Under the pieces are notes generated by a model. It saw only the letters and a program-made list of their open reading frames with translations, did no database searches and was not told the origin of the DNA. Of a stretch of DNA of 64,000 bases, positions 17,514-63,395 are shown in pieces. Origin of the DNA: a virus; IMG/VR virus record IMGVR_UViG_3300032782_000006, positions 13,568 through 77,567 of that record. One strand, 5' to 3'. Every line of letters begins with the position of its first letter. Position 1 is the stretch's first letter. Made by a program: the position numbers and the translations under genes.

Positions 17514-18533
17514 TTAAGCTACCCCCGATTTGTCGATTCTCACACGAGTCCCACGGAGTATTGTTTTTGCAGCCTCAATTTCAGCTCGAGGGTCACCCTC
17601 TTGGTTTGCAACATATGTGCTACCCTGAACTTTGGTTTCTACAACTGGTGGAATACGTCCCCATTCCTGGTTCATCTCCAAAGTCAGACTCAAGGATTTG
17701 TCAGGATCATTGAGATCGTCAAACCTAGACTCAAACTTCTTCCGAATTCCTTCAGGGTATGAATTAAAAATCGCCTGGTTAAGCTCCAGTTTTTTAGCTT
17801 TTTCAATCTCGTCAAGCTGGTTGTTGAGTTTTTCAATAGCTGACGTCTGGTTAACAATAAGCTCCTGCTGTTCAGCTATTATCTTCTTAGAATTATCTAA
17901 TTCCTGATTCAGAGTCAGGATTACCTTCTCTTTTTCTACCAAAGCATCCTGATTTGTTTTGAGGAGAGCATTGGCATACTCTAAAGAAGTTGGTTCTGTG
18001 GTACTAATCTCAGTGGTTGACATAATAGTCTCCGTCGAGTCTTGATTGATAATTAACGCCGCTTGCTCTCCCTGTGGGATGTTGGAATCTCTTGGGTAGA
18101 TAAGCAAGTGATCAAAGTCAAAAGAAGAAATGTGTGGAGTTGTGGGATCACGCCAATATGCATCTGAAATAAAAACTTTACCTTGTTTGATCAGGTCTTC
18201 AATTTCAGGATCGGTGATATTGATTTTAGCTCGAAGTTTAGGTCGCCCTATACTATCGATCCATGCATCACCCATCGTTCCCACTGATTTGATTTCCTGA
18301 CTAAAAATGGATTCAGGATCTTTGCCTTTAAAACCACCATCAGGATGCGTGATAGAAAATGGAATAGGTTTGCCTGGAATAGTTGACAGTCCTGCCTCTA
18401 TCCCTGGGATATCATCGTCGTCCAAAACTTGAAGAACTACCTCATGTTCTGAAACAAACTCGCCAGTGTTTTGAATAAGTACTTCGCTCACGTTTTTGGA
18501 TCCAATGTAACGTTTTTTAGAATAGCGATTCAT
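17514..18533 (-). CDS. Prohead protease-scaffold fusion
   Basis: N-terminal GKPIPFSITHP...FDHLLI region followed by a long coiled coil; first gene of the capsid operon. Confidence 0.6.
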   Translation of the reverse strand: MNRYSKKRYIGSKNVSEVLIQNTGEFVSEHEVVLQVLDDDDIPGIEAGLSTIPGKPIPFSITHPDGGFKGKDPESIFSQEIKSVGTMGDAWIDSIGRPKLRAKINITDPEIEDLIKQGKVFISDAYWRDPTTPHISSFDFDHLLIYPRDSNIPQGEQAALIINQDSTETIMSTTEISTTEPTSLEYANALLKTNQDALVEKEKVILTLNQELDNSKKIIAEQQELIVNQTSAIEKLNNQLDEIEKAKKLELNQAIFNSYPEGIRKKFESRFDDLNDPDKSLSLTLEMNQEWGRIPPVVETKVQGSTYVANQEGDPRAEIEAAKTILRGTRVRIDKSGVA

Positions 18534-18845
18534 CTAAACAATTTTTGATAAGAAATGGTTTGCGCTTCTATATAAATATATAGGGTAAGTTCCTCAGAAT
18601 TTTGAGGTGTACCAGCAAGAAAAGAGTGTCTTCTGTATCCAATCAACAATATAAAAAAGAGCAATTTTACAGAAAAAAAATTTAGGTGACTAAAAGGTAG
18701 GGGGTTTAAAATGAGATTGATACCCCCAGGGGATATTAAAAAAGGATAGCCCTAAGGGTTTGATATTCAACTATTAAGGAGGGGGAATACCCGTAGGATA
18801 TTGCTGACAATCAATATCCTATGGTATTACACACAAACTTTTTTA

Positions 18846-18953
18846 TTGGAGAACAACCTATTTCCGCAAGGTTACGCAGGCCAGAGCGCGGGCCGACTCA
18901 ACTTTGGATAATGTAGAGGTACCACGCCCTACAATATCCATAATACTCTCCAA
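18846..18953 (-). ncRNA. Structured ncRNA candidate A, loop CGUGGUAC
   Basis: Closing stem TTGGAGA/TCTCCAA, extended by G-U pairs only on the minus strand; three internal hairpins; no ORF. Confidence 0.6.
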
Positions 18954-19002
18954 ACCGTTCACAATTTCTTTTCTCAAATTCCCATTATATGCTTATACTT
19001 GC

Positions 19003-19053
19003 TATAAGCAATAAGTAATACTCTTTTATAGTATATATACCTTATTGCTTATA
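19003..19053. promoter_or_regulatory. Perfect 13-bp inverted repeat (candidate operator) around a TATA-rich spacer
   Basis: TATAAGCAATAAG at 19003-19015 and CTTATTGCTTATA at 19041-19053, between the divergent ncRNA A and a wHTH gene. Confidence 0.6.
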
Positions 19054-19094
19054 CTCGATATAAGATTTATATATCATGAAGTAAGGTATATAGT

Positions 19095-19370
19095 ATGGAA
19101 AATGTGCCAGAGAAGAGGGTTAGGCAACGAACAGAAGATCGATCTAGATTCATAAAAGTGGATATCGATGATGAGATTATAGCTTCTTTAAAAAAATGTC
19201 AAAAGAACGCAGCTTGTACTGCTTTAGAAGTATCAAAAGAATATGGATGCTCTCAATCTCATGCTAAAAGTACCCTACTCCGGTTAGCAAAAGAAGGGAG
19301 GATTCTAGGAATTAAAAAAGGGCAAGCTCATGCGTTTAAGCCGTTGCCAGAAGAAGACGGAGATTCTTAG
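19095..19370 (+). CDS. Winged-helix DNA-binding protein
   Basis: TALEVSKEYGCSQSHAKSTLLRLAKEGRI helix-turn-helix plus wing. Confidence 0.7.
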   Translation: MENVPEKRVRQRTEDRSRFIKVDIDDEIIASLKKCQKNAACTALEVSKEYGCSQSHAKSTLLRLAKEGRILGIKKGQAHAFKPLPEEDGDS

Positions 19371-22409: not shown

Positions 22410-22463
22410 GTGGTACAATCTCCAATATTTATAAAAAAAATAAAAAGGATGGGGATCTAGACA

Positions 22464-25023: not shown

Positions 25024-25389
25024 TTGTGGTACAATCTCCGTTTTTTTACGTTGTAATAAGTGGTATTTACGGTTATTTAACCATATTTCAAAATCACTAA
25101 ATAGAGGATTTATTTTGAATTTATTTGGGGATTTTCCGCATTTTTAGAGTTTTTTTAAGGATTTTCGGGCATTATTTGGCTATTTTTTGCCATTTTTAAT
25201 CCATAATTTAATTAAAAGAAGGCATTATCAGGCGTCTTTTTCCATAAAATTGGATTATTTCCAGCATTTATTTAGATGAAACCTCTATATTTACCACTGT
25301 TTAAAGTTATGAAATCAGTTAAATCAAAGTTTATATGAGGACAGATACACTCTATTTTATAGATTTACAGCAAGTAGGGGGAGTATTCC

Positions 25390-26489: not shown

Positions 26490-26855
26490 TTAATAAACAG
26501 GAACAAACTGTCCAAACTGGTTAGGGCACATGTAAACGCCATTTACGTATTGGCAACTATACCCCATAGGAGCGTTAATAGGAGCATATGGATAATATCC
26601 ACCGTTACCTATCCAGCCAGGACCATATCCTCCAGGACCAAACCTGCCAGGACCCCAGCCGCCAGGGCCAAAATGGCCAGGACCAATGTGAGGGCCAAAT
26701 CCGCCGCCGCCAGGACCAATGTGAGGGCCAATATGTGGACCTGGACCTGGAGCTTTCTCTTTTGCATGATGTTTATGAGAAGCAGCATTTACCGCTACTG
26801 CAGTCAATGAGACTACAAATAATATAGCTATCAAAATAGCAAGTATTTTTTTCAT
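26490..26855 (-). CDS. Secreted Gly/Pro-rich (GPG repeat) protein
   Basis: Signal peptide MKKILAILIAILFVVSLTAVAVNA; GPHI and GPGxx repeats; C-terminal Cys pair. Confidence 0.7.
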   Translation of the reverse strand: MKKILAILIAILFVVSLTAVAVNAASHKHHAKEKAPGPGPHIGPHIGPGGGGFGPHIGPGHFGPGGWGPGRFGPGGYGPGWIGNGGYYPYAPINAPMGYSCQYVNGVYMCPNQFGQFVPVY

Positions 26856-26934: not shown

Positions 26935-27100
26935 GGATATCCCCCCTAGAAGAGAAGCAACAAACTCTTCTTGGTGAAGATGTGGGGGATATCCTGTGGG
27001 GTAGAGGTAAAGGTGAAATCCCTCGCCCCTTGCATATTTGATACGGGATATGCGAGCCGTCGCAGAGGTGGGAGAAATGTAGAACCACCACTTTTGTCTA
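26935..27100 (+). ncRNA. Structured ncRNA candidate B
   Basis: Hairpins AGAAGAG/CTCTTCT, ATATCCTGT/ACGGGATAT and CAGAGGTGG/CCACTTTTG; G-U pairs favour the plus strand; GC-rich island in an AT-rich intergenic region. Confidence 0.5.
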
Positions 27101-27185: not shown

Positions 27186-27968
27186 TTAGAACCCTGTTTC
27201 TTGTTGGACAACCCAGAAATCTGTAGAGAGTTTTGTGCTTGCTAAATACTGATATGGGAGTGTAAAGTAACCTTTCATACCCCAACCAGTACCCCAAGAG
27301 TTTCGTACAATAAATACTCCTTTAGAATCATCGTATCCTACACAGCAGACGGCATGACCACCGAGCAATTGTTCATGAGATTTTGGCATCGGGACGATAC
27401 CAGTTTGTTCTACCTGAGTAGTTTCAAAACTAGAATAAACAGAGAAACCAAACACGAACGGGAGTCCAGATGCTAAACAGTTTTTCATACTGTTAAGATC
27501 GTTCTGGTTATGGAACGAAGAGATTCTATAATAATTTGTTAATTTGTGGTTAACAGCATCAGAATAAGCATTGGATGGAGGTTTTGTAAATACTTTGGAT
27601 TCATCATACGGCCAAAGAATCTCATTACAAACACCCTGAGACATTAAACATTTAATACCGTCTCGAAGTGAAGCTCCCGAATCCGAGTTTGTAGAATGTT
27701 CAAGAGCGCGTTCATTGTAGTAAATAAATAGTCTACTAACAGTCTCATAATTTGGATCTTTGTCTTTAAGTTCCAAAAACTGAATTGCACCAGAAAGAGC
27801 ATGAGCAGTACAACTTCCCAATTTTCCTTGATCTTCAATTGGGGAATCTGAAGGCCGGAGATCTACTGCCGGTGGCAATGGACCAGTAAATATTTTACAA
27901 TAAGTGAAATCTCTACTATCTAAGTTATCTCTTCGCCAGCCATACCTGCGTTCATTTTGACATGTCAT
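27186..27968 (-). CDS. Papain-family (C1A) cysteine peptidase
   Basis: DQGKLGSCTAHA (Gln, Cys), GGHAVCCVGY (His), RNSWG (Asn). Confidence 0.92.
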   Translation of the reverse strand: MTCQNERRYGWRRDNLDSRDFTYCKIFTGPLPPAVDLRPSDSPIEDQGKLGSCTAHALSGAIQFLELKDKDPNYETVSRLFIYYNERALEHSTNSDSGASLRDGIKCLMSQGVCNEILWPYDESKVFTKPPSNAYSDAVNHKLTNYYRISSFHNQNDLNSMKNCLASGLPFVFGFSVYSSFETTQVEQTGIVPMPKSHEQLLGGHAVCCVGYDDSKGVFIVRNSWGTGWGMKGYFTLPYQYLASTKLSTDFWVVQQETGF

Positions 27969-36048: not shown

Positions 36049-37473
36049 TTATTTTGAAAATCCCATCATTCTCCAAATATTTTCTCCAAACGACGATGCT
36101 AGGGAGCTTCCTTCTGTAATAGAAGCATCAAATCCTTCTTGTTTTATCAAATTGAGCTCAGTTATACCCCAAACTAAACTATCTAACCGATCAGGACTCT
36201 TTTCCGCCCCAGGAACCCATTCACATAACTGGTCTTCCAATTCACGGAACGTCCCTACATGATGAACACGACCTTGTTCATAAAGAGACGACACCGGCTC
36301 TGCCCGAATAACTTTTCCTCTAGATGCGTGAACTGCCTTAAACGGAACTGATGCATCCAACATCCTAATCGTATGTTCGACCATATCGCCTCCATTATTG
36401 ACCTCGCCAACTACCAGATTTGCCTGATGAAGATGAAATGCAGAAATCACCGCTTTTCCCCATTGTTGCGGCGTATCATGAATCGTATAATCTCCTAGAA
36501 CATATCCATGATTATTAGCATCTGCCGCGACTACTATAATCCCAGTATCATCAGACCCCTCTTTAGAGGTAGTAGCCGGATCTACACCAACCACAACATA
36601 GGTATATTGTGCAGGCGGTTTGTAGACTCTATTATCGTCAATAATGTCTCGTTTCCAAAGCGCTTCAGGATTATCTGAAAGAAAATCGCCTTCTAGCTCT
36701 TGTCTCCCCAACCTAGTCCCTTTATATTTATTAATAATTGTCGAAATAAAGACAGGTGAAAGGTTGCAATAATTTTCTTGAGTATTGCCGCGAGTCACCA
36801 CGGTACATTTTCTTCCCTTATCGTCCATCCTTTTTTCTAATTCTATAAGAAATTTAGTCGGTCTGGGAGTAGAAGATACTATACAAAGAGGATTTTTGCC
36901 TAATCTGAGACCCATCATTAGATTATCAAACGTCTCCTCTGGCCGCAACCATTTTGCGATTTCGTCACACCATAAAAAATCAGATTGGGGACCTCGCGCC
37001 TTATCCGGTTCGGATCCATAATAAAAATGAGACACTACTTTATTTGGCCAAATCAGCTTTTTTAAAGACGGGATAAACGTTGGATAAAAATCTTTAGGGC
37101 AACACGCTAGGATACCGGATTCCCCATCGATCATTAGATCGCGCACATCTTCGGCGGTAGCTCCGACTAGATTAGGGTATTTATATCCGCCATAACGTAC
37201 AGCCCAAACGAACGTTTCCGCTGAGGTTTTGGTTTTACCCCATCCTCGCCCAGCTCGGATATTCCAGATGAAACAGCCGTCCTTTCCCCATTCGTCTGGT
37301 GGAAGCTGGTTATCTCTAGCCCAGAACAACCAATCTTTTTTAAAAAATTCTAGTTGAGAATCAGGAATAGATTTTAGAAACTGTTCCTGCTCATTTTTCG
37401 GTAGGCTGCGAAGATAATCCGCTGAGTATCGATGATCTAATCTCTTCAGGACTGGTTGCGTCGACGTTGACAT
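36049..37473 (-). CDS. terL: Terminase large subunit
   Basis: Walker A RAGRGWGKT, Walker B LWCDE, STPRP coupling motif, VGVDPA nuclease motif, SPDRLDSLVW. Confidence 0.95.
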   Translation of the reverse strand: MSTSTQPVLKRLDHRYSADYLRSLPKNEQEQFLKSIPDSQLEFFKKDWLFWARDNQLPPDEWGKDGCFIWNIRAGRGWGKTKTSAETFVWAVRYGGYKYPNLVGATAEDVRDLMIDGESGILACCPKDFYPTFIPSLKKLIWPNKVVSHFYYGSEPDKARGPQSDFLWCDEIAKWLRPEETFDNLMMGLRLGKNPLCIVSSTPRPTKFLIELEKRMDDKGRKCTVVTRGNTQENYCNLSPVFISTIINKYKGTRLGRQELEGDFLSDNPEALWKRDIIDDNRVYKPPAQYTYVVVGVDPATTSKEGSDDTGIIVVAADANNHGYVLGDYTIHDTPQQWGKAVISAFHLHQANLVVGEVNNGGDMVEHTIRMLDASVPFKAVHASRGKVIRAEPVSSLYEQGRVHHVGTFRELEDQLCEWVPGAEKSPDRLDSLVWGITELNLIKQEGFDASITEGSSLASSFGENIWRMMGFSK

Positions 37474-39820: not shown

Positions 39821-42800
39821 CTATTTATCCAGGAAACCTTTCGATAAAAGGTCAAAGAATCCGTAAATATCTTTGTTCTGTAATAAAAGTTCTAGCTCTT
39901 CGCGGAACTTGTTCTCCTTGACGAAAATGTCACGATTGAAAATGATTTTATTAATCTCGTTTTGACACTCTAAAAGCGTCAAGCGCTTCTTGAGTTCCGC
40001 AACTTCTATTTGATTTGCGAGATCATAGTTAGTGCATTCTGCACAAACACATTTAGACAGACACATTCCTCCGGTAGTACCAGGGATCTAGAACGTCATG
40101 GAATTCTCTAAAGGTTTTTATTAGCCTAATCGAAAACTCTTCTTCTGACAAAATAGATGTATCTGCTATCATGGTACAATCTCAGTACCTAATTGATATG
40201 TCCCTGACCATATTTAAAACTATTCAAACAGTCATTATCCAGTGGGTATCCTTCCCTACCAGGGCTTTAGCCCACCACGTTTTCCATTTTGCCAGAATAT
40301 TAAGAACAATATCACAAAGTATAAATTCTTGCAAAAATAACATAGTACTATTGGAGAAGTACCACATTATCGTCACAAAAATTTAAGCTTTGACGATTTT
40401 GCGCTCTAAGCCTAGAGATTGTTCCACCAATCTCTGGCTTTTCCATTCACTGACAGTATTTCCTAATTACCTATTTTCTGAATAATAACCCCATCCTTCG
40501 TCATGAGTATACAATTTAAATTGTTTATAATTAATATTTGGAGAATCAGGTTCATCAATAGACGAATATACTCCTAAATTACTAATCCAAACCGCAGGCT
40601 TTTTACTATCCACAAATGGATAATCTGTTCCAAACGATATCCAAACCATTTTTGGAGTTTGTTTTATCATTCTCTCCTCTTCACATTCAGGGATTAGGTT
40701 CCCAAACTTAGTCTTCATTTCAAAAAGAAATTTATCAATTTTTGAATAAGTCTCATTCGATATATTGTCGTCCTCAAACGGATCATAAATTCGTTTTCCA
40801 TTTTGGTATACTTCATATTCCAGGAACAGTCTATCAATCGATATTGCATATCGAGTAACTAATTTTATACCATCATCTAACAATAAATTGTAATCAATAT
40901 TGGGTATATTTTCTAAATTTATCATAATTTAGTTCTCCATTTCCGTTACAAATCGGATTCTTTAGTTACATGATAACTAAAATCTACAAGCTCATCATAT
41001 GCACGATTATATGTTGCATATACATTCTCAGAACTTAACGGGGAATAACACTCATTCCTACAGTCTAAATACGTTTTTACCTCGTCAATTAGCTCTTGCA
41101 ACTCTTGAATAAAATCTAAAACGTCTTTTTTATCAAGCCCTTGATCCAAATATGACATTTTATATTCTCCTTTTTTAAAAAGTATCAATTTTATATGTTT
41201 TGAAAACAAAAATGTAAAAACCTGCGATCAGTATCACAAACTTCATTATAAACTCGTTCTACATCAAACTCAAGATTTACATTTTTGAAAGCTTTAATAT
41301 ACAATTCAAAAAAATTGAACGCATCTTTCTCATCATCCAGATTCCCTACAAATCCCAATATTTCATTCGCGATATCCACTTCATTTATTCCATTGTTTGT
41401 CATTTATGCTCAGCTCCGTTGTTCTAAAAATTAATAATAGTAGTTTATTCATCGTCAGAATCAAGCTCTGTCTCAAAAACCTTCAATTCGGGATATTTAT
41501 CTAGCAATTCCCAACTTTCCGAACGTGCAATCTGCGCAAATGCAAATTCGTCTGAAACTACTTCTCCATAATCACGATCCCCTTCCCATTGAGAAGTAAA
41601 TATCAGCACAAACTTTTTTGATTTTTTAAGTTTAGTCAACCCTAGATGTTTTCCAGTTCCACCGTTCGTATAATTACGTCCATCCCAAATATCTAGGTTA
41701 GAATTTGATTTTACACGAGCAACCACATTACCATCATTATCATAAACATTTACCATTTGTATCAGCCTCTTTGTCCAAAATTAATATTTTTGTGTTCTCC
41801 TTTAATCTTATTTCTTACAATACCTACTATGTCTGCAAAATATATAAACTTTTCGGAACAATATTTAATAAAGAATCCTTCCAAAATAAATTTTCAAAAA
41901 AATAAATCTTTAAGGAATTTTATGAACCTAAAAACGATAAGTAGTAATCCGACAGGTTGATAACAACAACCCATCGGTGACACCGCTATCTCAAATTTCG
42001 CACAAAATCCGATGATACCAGATATAGTATTTTTCCAAACATACTACTCTTTTCTACATTATAAACATTTCCTATTTTATCTATGTAATAATTTGGATTT
42101 ATTACATAGGTCACATCCGTACAATATTAATCATTCCCCAGTTACGTTCTTTACATATTCCAGCATCAATCTCATATTTTCATGCAACTGCTCTATAATT
42201 TCTACCCAAGATTTGGCCTCTCCTAAAAACCATCCATAGTCTTCATTATATAGTAAAAGTCGATTATCTGAAGAAAACCCATAAACTTGATACTCCATAG
42301 GATAAACCATTCCAGGATTGTTATCCCCAAGTCCATATTTAGTCCGAGTTCGTAAAAAATTACCCCTATCTGTCTCTTCATTCAACTTTTCTACAAATTC
42401 TTCGTCAATTACATAATTAGTAACTACCATAATCAAACTCCATGATCAATATTCCCAAGACTCATGATATTTTCTACTAGCTGACCTTACTCCTAAAAAT
42501 TCTTTAACAATTCCATCAGCTACAGTATGAGCCCAATCTATAAAGTTTTCTTGGGTTTTATACACTTTTTTATGTTGACCCTCTTCGATTTCATAGTTGA
42601 AATACATTCCGTCCTCGTCTTCATCAAATTCGTCAAGCGTATTTTCAATAAAAAAAGGAACGTACCCCAACTGCTCCAAATAATGTGACCGGATGGCTTC
42701 TTTAGTACTCATTTTGCATCATAAAATAGTATTACCATCCAAATTATAAACTGATCTTGATCTTACTTAAAATTTATTTAAAGTTTTTGAATACTATAAC

Positions 42801-50689: not shown

Positions 50690-50731
50690 ACTCTTTTCTT
50701 TTTAAACATTTTTTATTGGAGATTGTACCAC

Positions 50732-51484: not shown

Positions 51485-52066
51485 ATTCCATTTGTAAAAA
51501 ATTGTGAAATAAAGACATTCTCTCATGATGACGCAGTTTGGTTAGCTGGATTTATGGATGGGGAAGGAACTTTTTCAATAAATCAACGAGTTAGTAAATA
51601 TTCAAATGGGGATCCAAACTATAATTATACTCCTACGATTTCTGTTATAAATACTGATTTATCCACAATCAAATATATTATGGAACTATGGGGATTAAAT
51701 AAATATCACTCATATATCCGCGAAAAAGACCATCCCTGGAATAATACATATAAAGTCTATCTCAATGCTTTAGTAAATTGCCAAAACGTTTTGACTCAAT
51801 TAAATCCTTTTTTAGTTACTAAACGGGAACAAGGACAATTATTATTACAATTTGTTTTGTCTCGACTAAAAAACATGAAAGGATCCTCTATCCCTCAACG
51901 TACTCCATATTCAGAATTTGAATATAGTACCTATTTAAAATTACGCGAATTGAACTATAGGGGGAGTAAAAAACGTATCCCCTTTACCGAGTACCAGTTT
52001 ATGAGGGATATTGGAAACTATTCTACAGAAGAATCAATTGTATCTCCCGAAGAGGTATATTTATGA
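51485..52066 (+). CDS. Free-standing single-motif LAGLIDADG endonuclease
   Basis: WLAGFMDGEG motif begins upstream of ATG 51554; PFLVTKREQ. Confidence 0.85.
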   Translation: MPFVKNCEIKTFSHDDAVWLAGFMDGEGTFSINQRVSKYSNGDPNYNYTPTISVINTDLSTIKYIMELWGLNKYHSYIREKDHPWNNTYKVYLNALVNCQNVLTQLNPFLVTKREQGQLLLQFVLSRLKNMKGSSIPQRTPYSEFEYSTYLKLRELNYRGSKKRIPFTEYQFMRDIGNYSTEESIVSPEEVYL

Positions 52067-52413: not shown

Positions 52414-52551
52414 AGTATGTCAGGCGCAATTTGTTCTTTTGTTCCATTAGCGATATTAGACGGTAGTATACCTACCTATCTATCAAAACCGCAATGGCGG
52501 GCCGTGGTACGCTCGAAAATAATCTCAGAATGTGATTGTGCCTGACGTACT
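52414..52551 (+). ncRNA. Structured ncRNA candidate G (three-way junction), loop CGUGGUAC plus unpaired AAUCUC
   Basis: 17-bp closing stem 52414-30/52535-51 with two G-U pairs; inner stems CCATT/AATGG, GGTAG/CTACC and CGGGC/GCTCG; BRE/TATA AAAAGATATATA near 52385. Confidence 0.7.
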
Positions 52552-53027
52552 CATACATTAGCTTAATAGTATGCTGGATATCTCAAATGCAAACATATCC
52601 ATTTTTTAGCTATTTGGAATCCGAGCACAATCCTCTAATTATTTCCTCATTGCTTATAAATATATATATCTTGGGTAAATGATTTTTAGAGAGTTGGGGG
52701 GCATAAATATAATTGGGTTGGTGTCCACTCTACTATTCAAATCATTATACCGAAGACGATTTTTGTTTAAATTATGGATGCGCTTTTGGTCAAACTTTAA
52801 AACGTTATAGGACTATATATGTTTATCGTAGATTATTATAGTTGTAATGTTAGAATGTTATAGTGATGGTATAATATCCTCATTGACGTGAATAATACTC
52901 ATTATCTTAATAAAAAAGAGAACAAAAGTTATATACATTGGAATCGTTTTTGAAAAATGCGCCAGATTTTGACTATGAAGAGCATCATTTCGGTTTTTCC
53001 ATTTTACCTCTATGATGCTCTTTTAGA

Positions 53028-53654: not shown

Positions 53655-54419
53655 TTGGAATTTCCAGAGGATTACTTAAATAAAATTATATGTGGGGATT
53701 GTTACTCTATAATGCAACAAATGCCCGATAAGTGTCTAGATCTTATTGTCACCTCTCCTCCATATAATCTAAAAAATTCTACTGGCAATGGGATGAAAAA
53801 TGGTCGGGGTGGGAAATGGTCAAATGCTGCGTTGTTAAATGCTTATGATACTTTCAATGATAATATGCCACACGAAGAATATTCAAAATGGCAAAAAGAT
53901 TGTTTAACTGAAATGTTTCGGTTACTCAAGGAAGATGGTGCAATATTCTATAATCATAAATGGCGTGTACAGGGTGGTTTACTTCAAGATAGGCAAGATA
54001 TTGTTGGTGGTTTCCCCGTAAGGCAAATAATTATCTGGCGTAGGAAAGGTGGGATTAATTTCAATCCAGGATATTTTCTACCAACATATGAAGTAATTTA
54101 TCTCATAGCAAAACCCAAATTCAAACTTGCTCCGAAGGCAAATGCGTATGGGGATGTATGGGAGTTCACACAAGAAATGAATAATGATCACCCTGCTCCG
54201 TTTCCTGTATCCCTTATCAAAAGAATTATTTCTTCAACAAATGCTCAGATCGTTTTAGATCCGTTTTCGGGAAGTGGAACAACCGCTATTGTGGCTATGG
54301 GTTTAAATCGGAAATATATTGGAATAGAGATCTCTCCTAAATATTGTATGATGTCTGAAAATAGGATTGAAAAAAATAAAATACAACCTGAACTAGCTAT
54401 GAGAAACATTTTTAACTAA
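53655..54419 (+). CDS. Beta-class DNA amino-methyltransferase (m4C/m6A)
   Basis: VTSPPY catalytic motif, HPAPFP, and DPFSGSGTT SAM-binding motif. Confidence 0.92.
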   Translation: MEFPEDYLNKIICGDCYSIMQQMPDKCLDLIVTSPPYNLKNSTGNGMKNGRGGKWSNAALLNAYDTFNDNMPHEEYSKWQKDCLTEMFRLLKEDGAIFYNHKWRVQGGLLQDRQDIVGGFPVRQIIIWRRKGGINFNPGYFLPTYEVIYLIAKPKFKLAPKANAYGDVWEFTQEMNNDHPAPFPVSLIKRIISSTNAQIVLDPFSGSGTTAIVAMGLNRKYIGIEISPKYCMMSENRIEKNKIQPELAMRNIFN

Positions 54420-63347: not shown

Positions 63348-63395
63348 TGTGGTACAATCTCCGTTTAGGGTACAATCTCAGTTTTAGGGAGGGAT

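Follow-up and report, generated by a model that had tools for sequence, protein, structure and literature searches.

Does a short structured stretch of viral DNA encode an RNA that controls the late genes of the virus, or is it simply promoter DNA rich in palindromes? The stretch in question is a 108-nt element at 18846-18953 of a 64,000-nucleotide window, which comprises bases 13568-77567 of a 77,567-bp IMG/VR virus record (IMGVR_UViG_3300032782_000006) with a 127-bp direct terminal repeat; all positions below are those of the window. The element is located in a 560-bp spacer between a head operon on the minus strand and a divergent gene for a winged-helix (wHTH) regulator on the plus strand, and one of its loops, CGUGGUAC, recurs in a second element at 52414-52551. 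The reading we favour, plausible but unproven and with a probability of about 0.3, is that the element belongs to a minus-strand small RNA (sRNA) that, alongside the 52414 element, would pair through this loop with the leaders of late genes. We consider chance about equally likely.

A loop complementary to late-gene leaders

We folded the element with ViennaRNA (minimum free energy) and computed z-scores against dinucleotide shuffles, 200 per strand. The minimum-energy fold of 18846-18953 is a four-way junction on both strands, and on the minus strand this junction is retained in 231-nt and 343-nt contexts. The hairpin, the junction closed by UUGGAGA/UCUCCAA and their coordinates, all drawn in the original prediction, are confirmed in sequence and fold. 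The exact 108 nt reach z = -2.33 on the minus strand, with 5/200 shuffles equally good, and z = -3.41 on the plus strand (1/200); in a 121-nt context, 15/200 shuffles match the native minus-strand fold. Among the 15,492 windows of a whole-genome scan at 110 nt, the element ranks 100th on the minus strand (top 0.65%) and 233rd on the plus strand. It is also an island of 49% GC between flanks of 35% and 25.5%, and overall is a real but not extreme folding outlier. A tRNA-like cloverleaf was rejected: ARAGORN found 0 tRNA or tmRNA genes in the window, Rfam gave no tRNA match, and a 36-nt arm with loops of 8-9 nt does not fit a tRNA.

The loop of the long hairpin connects the element to a set of late genes. 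The leader of these genes has the form GGAGAUUGUACCAC(N0-3)AUG, and its 14-nt ribosome-binding motif, GGAGATTGTACCAC, is present in seven exact copies and one with a single mismatch, each 0-3 nt before a start codon. The genes behind it include those for the tail tube, the tail terminator, a protein with a weak portal match and a 1674-aa depolymerase-like beta-helix fibre, and the major-capsid candidate has the same AAAAACGGAG with a different spacer. Within the loop, GUGGUAC (18925-18919) is the exact complement of the leader's GUACCAC, 0-3 nt before the AUG of eight genes, and opening it is predicted to cost 0.93 kcal/mol, compared with 0.46 kcal/mol for the partner element. By prediction, then, the element has one feature of a trans-acting antisense sRNA, an accessible segment complementary to the initiation region of a target. 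Searches with the leader 17-mer returned one unrelated IMG/VR contig and nine scattered, unrelated bacterial or archaeal contigs, with none in the methanogen genomes of the GTDB set; since these matches are scattered and unrelated, the leader is not a host-wide or lineage-wide signal in the collections searched. Two leader-like sequences lie elsewhere in the virus: GAGATTAGTACCAC at 17998-18011 (minus), inside the 339-aa head gene and without a following ATG, may be chance or an internal signal, and the variant TTGGAGAAGTACCAC at 40349-40368 (plus), followed by ATT, could mark a gene start with a non-canonical start codon.

Further pieces of leader antisense accompany the loop. On the minus strand, the anti-Shine-Dalgarno (SD)-like UCUCCAA of the closing stem, at +60 nt from the loop, is complementary to leader UUGGAGA, and a downstream hairpin exposes the complement of leader GAGAUUG in its loop (Table 1). 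In the partner element, AAUCUC, a second leader-antisense piece, lies 10 nt past the loop and is predicted to be open. The pieces stand in antisense 5'-3' order in both elements.

That a distant RNA carries the identical 8-nt loop, as claimed in the original prediction, holds exactly. The accompanying claim that the two RNAs have nothing else in common is correct for alignable sequence, as an alignment of the two elements found no alignable similarity beyond the hairpin, but it overlooks several parallels in architecture. In both, the loop-closing stem contains a G-U pair on the anti-leader strand; a GGAUAU-N12/13-AUAUCC hairpin lies downstream of both (18821-18794 here; 52576-52600, with N13, in the partner); the antisense pieces are ordered alike; and a small open reading frame (ORF) behind an SD-like sequence overlaps each. 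Sequence, fold, loop identity, complementarity, predicted accessibility and the identity of the leader-bearing genes are all established directly. GGAUAU...AUAUCC loci number three in the genome; the third (26935-26994, between genes 26490-26855 and 27186-27968) has 48 nt between its arms, with a hairpin inside, and ranks among the windows that fold best on each strand (z ~-3.3). The alternative idea of a shared kissing loop has little in its favour, as the loops match instead of complementing each other and have only the 4-nt palindrome GUAC in common.

How often would such parallels arise at random? CGTGGTAC is present in three copies in the window versus 0.45 expected, and 0/100 shuffles reach three. 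At least two GTGGTAC copies fall in hairpin loops (stem of at least 5 bp, loop of at most 10 nt) in 3.8% of 600 Markov-1 random genomes, with a base rate of ~7% per copy. For AATCTC, the base rate is 2.4% within 30 nt on the plus strand and ~10% within 250 nt on the minus strand, and we estimate ~1% for a GGATAT palindrome within 100 nt of a given site, given three loci in 77.5 kb. We estimate an overall chance probability for the parallels of ~10^-3 to 4x10^-2, given as a range because the multiplication is post hoc and its terms are not fully independent.

Strand and transcription signals

We treat the virus as archaeal because boxes of B recognition element (BRE)/TATA type, such as CCGAAAAG-TTTATATA, precede its gene starts, together with its Pfam gene set. 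This is the set of a tailed virus: a T4-type TerL, tail tube and tail terminator proteins (both above the curated cut-off), a weak Mu-like portal match (20 bits, below the cut-off) and beta-helix proteins with a Disaggr_assoc domain, a family named after a Methanosarcina disaggregatase. These domains suggest that the host is probably a member of the Methanosarcinales. The only public run containing this DNA is a wetland DNA metagenome, probably its source, in which one identical contig and zero variants were found.

The minus strand had originally been preferred for its G-U pairs. The count supports this, with four G-U pairs on the minus strand versus one on the plus strand, and the G-U pair of the loop-closing stem becomes an A.C mismatch on the plus strand, as does that of the partner hairpin; the shuffle z-scores point the other way and are better on the plus strand at every length tried. 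On the plus strand, a T6 run immediately precedes the element and there is no TATA-like box at a usable distance. The minus strand has a promoter candidate whose TATA-like TATATATA (19039-19032) differs from TTTATATA by one mismatch, and a T6 run downstream of the element that could act as an archaeal terminator. Judged by such promoter-like and terminator-like signals, the minus strand is the better fit, and among the readings that involve an RNA we favour the minus strand by roughly three to one.

The candidate promoter lies back to back with that of the wHTH gene, whose perfect TATA box is close enough to the start codon that its mRNA is probably leaderless. The wHTH protein matches a PHROG family annotated as transcriptional regulator at 8.6e-5 and many wHTH families weakly; a match to eS25 (E = 0.12) was read as reflecting the common winged-helix fold only. 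Two 19-nt repeats and an inverted CTTATTGCTTATA surround the divergent TATA boxes and could serve as operators in a switch that selects either wHTH expression or leftward transcription. The motif ATTGCTTATA / TGCTTATAC..TATAAG, found at 18990-19064, occurs once more at 52649-52658, ~100 nt downstream of the 52414 element, and may be a regulator binding site common to both loci.

In the other direction, the head operon has TATA boxes of its own, and the element lies at least 190 nt upstream of them. Because of these boxes, the element is probably a separate unit and not the 5' leader of the operon. The element was originally described as lying just upstream of the capsid operon and diverging from a wHTH gene; this gene context is as described, while the operon's own proximal boxes loosen the link between the two. 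The related loci L002 and L003 carry the 11-nt sequence around the distal box, CTTTTTTATAT, in identical form and about as far from the gene.

Based on these signals, we propose that the element forms the structured core of a small non-coding RNA transcribed from the minus strand. The transcript would probably start from the BRE/TATA-like site at 19047-19032 and probably end at the T6 run at 18743-18738. Its open loop GUGGUAC would pair with GUACCAC in the leader GGAGAUUGUACCAC of the eight late genes, and pairing would block or otherwise modulate translation initiation. The 52414-52551 element, with the same loop, would act on the same leaders. We infer transcription itself, its strand, the transcript ends, pairing in vivo and its effect. 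A further step, that two unrelated viral sRNAs with the same anti-leader loop CGUGGUAC jointly set the timing or level of translation of the late structural regulon, is more tentative still.

Table 1. Positions of the element, its partner, and the signals and genes around them
Feature	Position in window	Strand	Remarks
Four-way-junction (cloverleaf-like) element, 108 nt	18846-18953	minus	minimum-energy folds
Closing stem UUGGAGA(G)/(U)UCUCCAA	5' strand UUGGAGA 18947-18953; 3' strand UCUCCAA 18846-18852	minus	
Long hairpin UGGAUA-U-UGUAGGG-CGUGGUAC-CUCUACA-U-UAUCCA	18905-18940	minus	one G-U pair in upper stem
8-nt loop CGUGGUAC	18919-18926	minus	read 18926-18919
Arm B, GU-GGCC-CGCGCUCU-GGCC-GC	18876-18897	minus	loop CGCGCUCU; from fold
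Arm C, UAACCU-UGCGGAAAU-AGGUUG	18854-18874	minus	loop UGCGGAAAU; from fold
27-codon ORF MDIVGRGTSTLSKVESARALACVTLRK plus stop	18858-18941	minus	SD and AUG both in helices
Perfect 10-bp hairpin AGGAUAUUG-N8-CAAUAUCCU	18794-18821	minus	~25 nt downstream of element
First T6 run after element	18738-18743	minus	candidate archaeal terminator; direct reading
Hairpin GGGGGU-AUCAAUCUCAUUUUAA-ACCCCC	18700-18727	minus	loop holds CAAUCUC (18719-18713), complement of leader GAGAUUG; +200 nt
T8 run	18680-18673	minus	
Best minus-strand promoter candidate: purine-rich CAAUAAGG, then TATATATA	19032-19047	minus	predicted start ~19008
TATA box of wHTH gene, perfect	19066-19073	plus	29 nt before ATG
Repeats TGCTTATAC(T/C)(T/G)(G/A)(C/T)TATAAG, 19 nt	18990-19008, 19046-19064		around divergent TATA boxes
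Inverted CTTATTGCTTATA	19003-19015 / 19041-19053		around back-to-back TATA boxes
wHTH regulator gene, 91 aa	19095-19370	plus	
Head-operon TATA box TTTTTATA	18657-18650	minus	inside 11-nt CTTTTTTATAT (18659-18649)
Head-operon TATA box TTTATATA, perfect	18576-18569	minus	43 nt before ATG
First gene of head operon, 339 aa	17514-18533	minus	
Partner element	52414-52551	plus	22-bp closing stem; G-U pairs on plus
Partner hairpin CGGGC-CGUGGUAC-GCUCG	loop 52503-52510	plus	
Partner 42-aa ORF (MSGAICSF...CDCA)	52417-52545	plus	start and stop regions form the 22-bp closing stem
T6 run after GGAUAU hairpin of partner	52602-52607	plus	
Leader copies	1075-1087, 2094-2106, 2552-2564, 2575-2587, 22410-22422, 25026-25038, 50719-50731, 63349-63361		
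TerL, T4-type	36049-37473		Pfam

Near the partner element, a LAGLIDADG-like ORF with a weak Pfam match (51554-52066, plus; E 0.0046) ends ~350 nt upstream, and an N6/N4 DNA methyltransferase gene (53655-54419, plus; Pfam E 4.8e-44) lies ~1.1 kb downstream. We rejected GTAC/GGTACC as a restriction-avoidance signal, as neither shows notable depletion and palindromic 4-mers are not strongly depleted genome-wide.

Competing explanations

Several observations speak against an sRNA. The seed is only 7 bp, and the further antisense pieces are poorly placed: UCUCCAA is buried in the closing stem (opening cost 6.6 kcal/mol) and the CAAUCUC hairpin comes only after the T6 run. Leader genes and control genes are not separated by plain duplex energies, which for that reason are not used as evidence. 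The minus-strand fold beats its shuffles only modestly, the z-scores favour the other strand, and the statistics are post hoc. No Rfam family matches at gathering score over the whole window, and in 18500-19150 there is no Rfam match at E up to 10 except an irrelevant chance match outside the element. The head operon's own TATA boxes, downstream of the element, count on the same side, as do the SD-like sequence and 27-codon ORF that overlap it.

Relatives add to these objections. The 339-aa neighbour protein has a dozen relatives, of which P0002-P0005, in short ENA/Logan contigs, are 55-70% identical. Three related JGI metagenome loci (53-55% amino acid identity to the neighbour) have neither the element nor the GTACCAC leader; the region upstream of their homologous head gene is different and contains no such hairpin. 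The proposal that the element is a second regulator of the same leader draws support from an exact complement of GUACCAC in a loop predicted to be unpaired, and from a partner with the same loop and AAUCUC in the right polarity, but finds none in these three relatives. We found no match in a phage collection searched by DNA and by protein, nothing in IMG/VR with the first head-gene protein, by alignment, with the wHTH protein or with the exact hairpin, and nothing in GTDB genomes by alignment. In L002 (4850-5003) and L003 (1830-1988) the homologous head gene is preceded by near-identical promoter and leader sequences, with CTTTTTTATATC..., a hairpin CCAATTGGACGAATTGGG and a duplicated AAAAACGGA; the two loci have only a TATA box in common with the virus studied here.

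The explanation that competes on equal terms is chance: an AT-rich promoter region with palindromes, in which the shared 8-mer and the antisense pieces are coincidental or are stray fragments of a much-duplicated leader. Leader fragments do spread, as partial tandem duplicates lie just upstream of two leaders (2588/2565 and 63380/63362). Outside leaders, GTACCAC is present in ~6 copies versus 4.3 expected, so the 7-mer is not enriched there, and any copy falls in a hairpin loop at a base rate of ~7%. About 100 windows of the genome fold relatively better than the element, 5/200 shuffles match the minus-strand fold of the exact element and 15/200 that of the 121-nt context, and the three relatives lack the element. 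What chance must explain is a stack of separate coincidences: the recurring loop, G-U pairs in the two loop-closing stems, downstream hairpins of one type, ordered antisense pieces and the GC island, for which our combined post hoc estimate is ~10^-3.

A cis-acting or protein-binding hairpin, comparable to lambda boxB/nut or acting in a late-operon leader, is unlikely, though slightly less so than the readings that follow. The nutL and nutR boxB sites of lambda are two distant sites at which a short hairpin with an identical loop occurs in unlike transcripts; in bacteria, the N protein bound to boxB brings about antitermination. By analogy, a leader starting at ~19008 would stop at T6/T8 unless a factor on the CGUGGUAC hairpin allowed read-through into the head operon, and the hairpin at 52503 would recruit the same factor. 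The likeness to boxB lies in the same short hairpin loop at two distant sites, here in two unlike contexts that are each followed by a hairpin and T runs; in addition, the head operon lies downstream on the same strand, and operator-like repeats and the wHTH gene adjoin the candidate promoter. Unlike boxB, the loop is complementary to a repeated mRNA leader. Against such read-through stand the operon's perfect TATA box, 43 nt upstream of the ATG, its second box, inside an 11-nt sequence also present in relatives without the element, and the lack of a clear same-strand operon after the 52414 element; no candidate RNA-binding factor, N-like protein or archaeal equivalent was identified. We know of no archaeal antitermination system of the boxB kind.

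The overlapping ORFs raise the possibility, which we judge distinctly unlikely, that the element is the mRNA of a 27-aa peptide whose SD is locked by pairing with sequence just past the stop codon, and that the 52414 element likewise encodes a 42-aa peptide with paired start and stop regions. An SD, a start codon and an open frame, arranged for fold-back sequestration as in type I toxin-like logic, are indeed present: the SD-like GGAGAG (18951-18946) overlaps the 5' closing strand and lies 4 nt (UAUU) before the AUG at 18941, 27 codons follow, and we estimate that ~0.04-0.05 cases of this kind would be expected by chance in the spacer. The partner has GAGGUGA-N9-AUG and a 42-aa ORF, called by a gene caller in a Logan assembly and a singleton in the protein collection. 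One study describes small ORFs of up to 70 aa as common in Methanosarcina (PMC11456600). However, the shared 8-mer lies in different frames of the two ORFs, and for this reason protein coding or homology does not explain it. The MDIVGRGTSTLSKVESARALACVTLRK peptide is polar and featureless, not of the hydrophobic membrane type, and its ORF is the shortest behind GGAG-AUG in the genome. The protein collection lacks this peptide and no homologue of it was found, neither frame across the element gave protein matches, and the 42-aa ORF has no real homologues, matching only short repeat-like stretches in long proteins. A separate 12-codon micro-ORF, MRLIPPGDIKKG, lies behind GGTAGGGGG at 18712-18750 on the plus strand, with a leader-like start region, ATGAGATTGATACC.

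Alternatively, the locus might act as DNA, with the imperfect palindromes GGATATTG...CAATATCC (18794-18821, 18907-18942) and the TGCTTATA repeats binding the wHTH protein or another regulator of the divergent promoters. We regard this as improbable. It is suggested by the clustering of 3/12 genomic GGATATTG copies within 150 bp, by repeats that flank both TATA boxes, and by strands that fold equally well, as palindromic DNA would. Yet four helix positions are G-U on one strand and thus not palindromic in DNA, arms B and C and a 7-bp closing stem with strands ~95 bp apart are atypical of operators, and a GC island is unusual for a promoter region.

The original prediction also noted that a plus-strand transcript would act as a sponge for the RNA at 52414. 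Such a decoy for the CGUGGUAC loop, or a mimic of the leader, is very improbable. In its favour, TTTTTTATTGGAGA, which matches the leader context at 50709-50722 exactly, and GAGGTACCACG are both present on the plus strand, whose z-scores are also the better ones; set against this are the T6 run directly before the element with no TATA box at a usable distance, the A.C mismatch beside the loop, and more than 14 kb upstream without a plus-strand gene.

The suggestion of a portal-bound packaging RNA (pRNA) like that of phi29 has no support: only the size (~110 nt), the multi-helix junction, the tailed-virus origin and the position near head genes recall it, while there is no Rfam covariance-model match at any threshold, the virus has a terminase-type enzyme (the T4-type TerL), the element lies at genome position ~32,400 of 77,567, ~32.4 kb from the terminal repeat, and its loops CGUGGUAC, CGCGCUCU and UGCGGAAAU share no inter-loop complement of at least 4 nt, only the self-palindromes GUAC and CGCG.

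Implications and known parallels

Almost nothing is known about post-transcriptional control in methanogen viruses. If the sRNA reading is correct, one 7-nt loop carried on two viral RNAs would couple tail, portal and receptor-binding genes at the level of translation by way of their common leader, and would provide a simple, testable regulon in a virus group without cultured members. No earlier regulon under trans-acting sRNAs would have been described in a virus of archaea: our literature search found no paper on a trans-acting sRNA encoded by an archaeal virus, and we know of no such RNA. Otherwise, the region is simply a promoter spacer with palindromes.

In mechanism, the closest analogues would be the c4 antisense RNA of phage P1 and a sRNA of Methanosarcina mazei that masks a ribosome-binding site (RBS); we claim membership of neither family, and as there is no Rfam match at all, there is no match to the c4 family. 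c4 uses two separate complementary segments, and both candidate RNAs here have split complementarity in the right polarity. The c4 RNA of P1 and P7 (immI) is a small structured phage RNA whose exposed segments pair with the initiation region of its target and repress expression (PMC8198154). Its single target is a message downstream in its own operon, whereas eight dispersed late genes would be the targets here, and it comes from a phage, while the virus studied here is of archaeal type.

In vitro, the M. mazei sRNA masks both the RBS and the start codon of the mRNA that it targets (PMC3432209). It is encoded by a cell, not a virus, and is unrelated in sequence to the element, whose seed is only 7 nt long and would pair in the spacer between SD and AUG. 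The likeness lies in the probable host clade and in a mechanism of RBS and start codon sequestration. Should the late-gene leaders prove to be targets of the two loops, RBS-masking control by sRNAs would extend from an RNA of a Methanosarcina host to the viruses of archaea.

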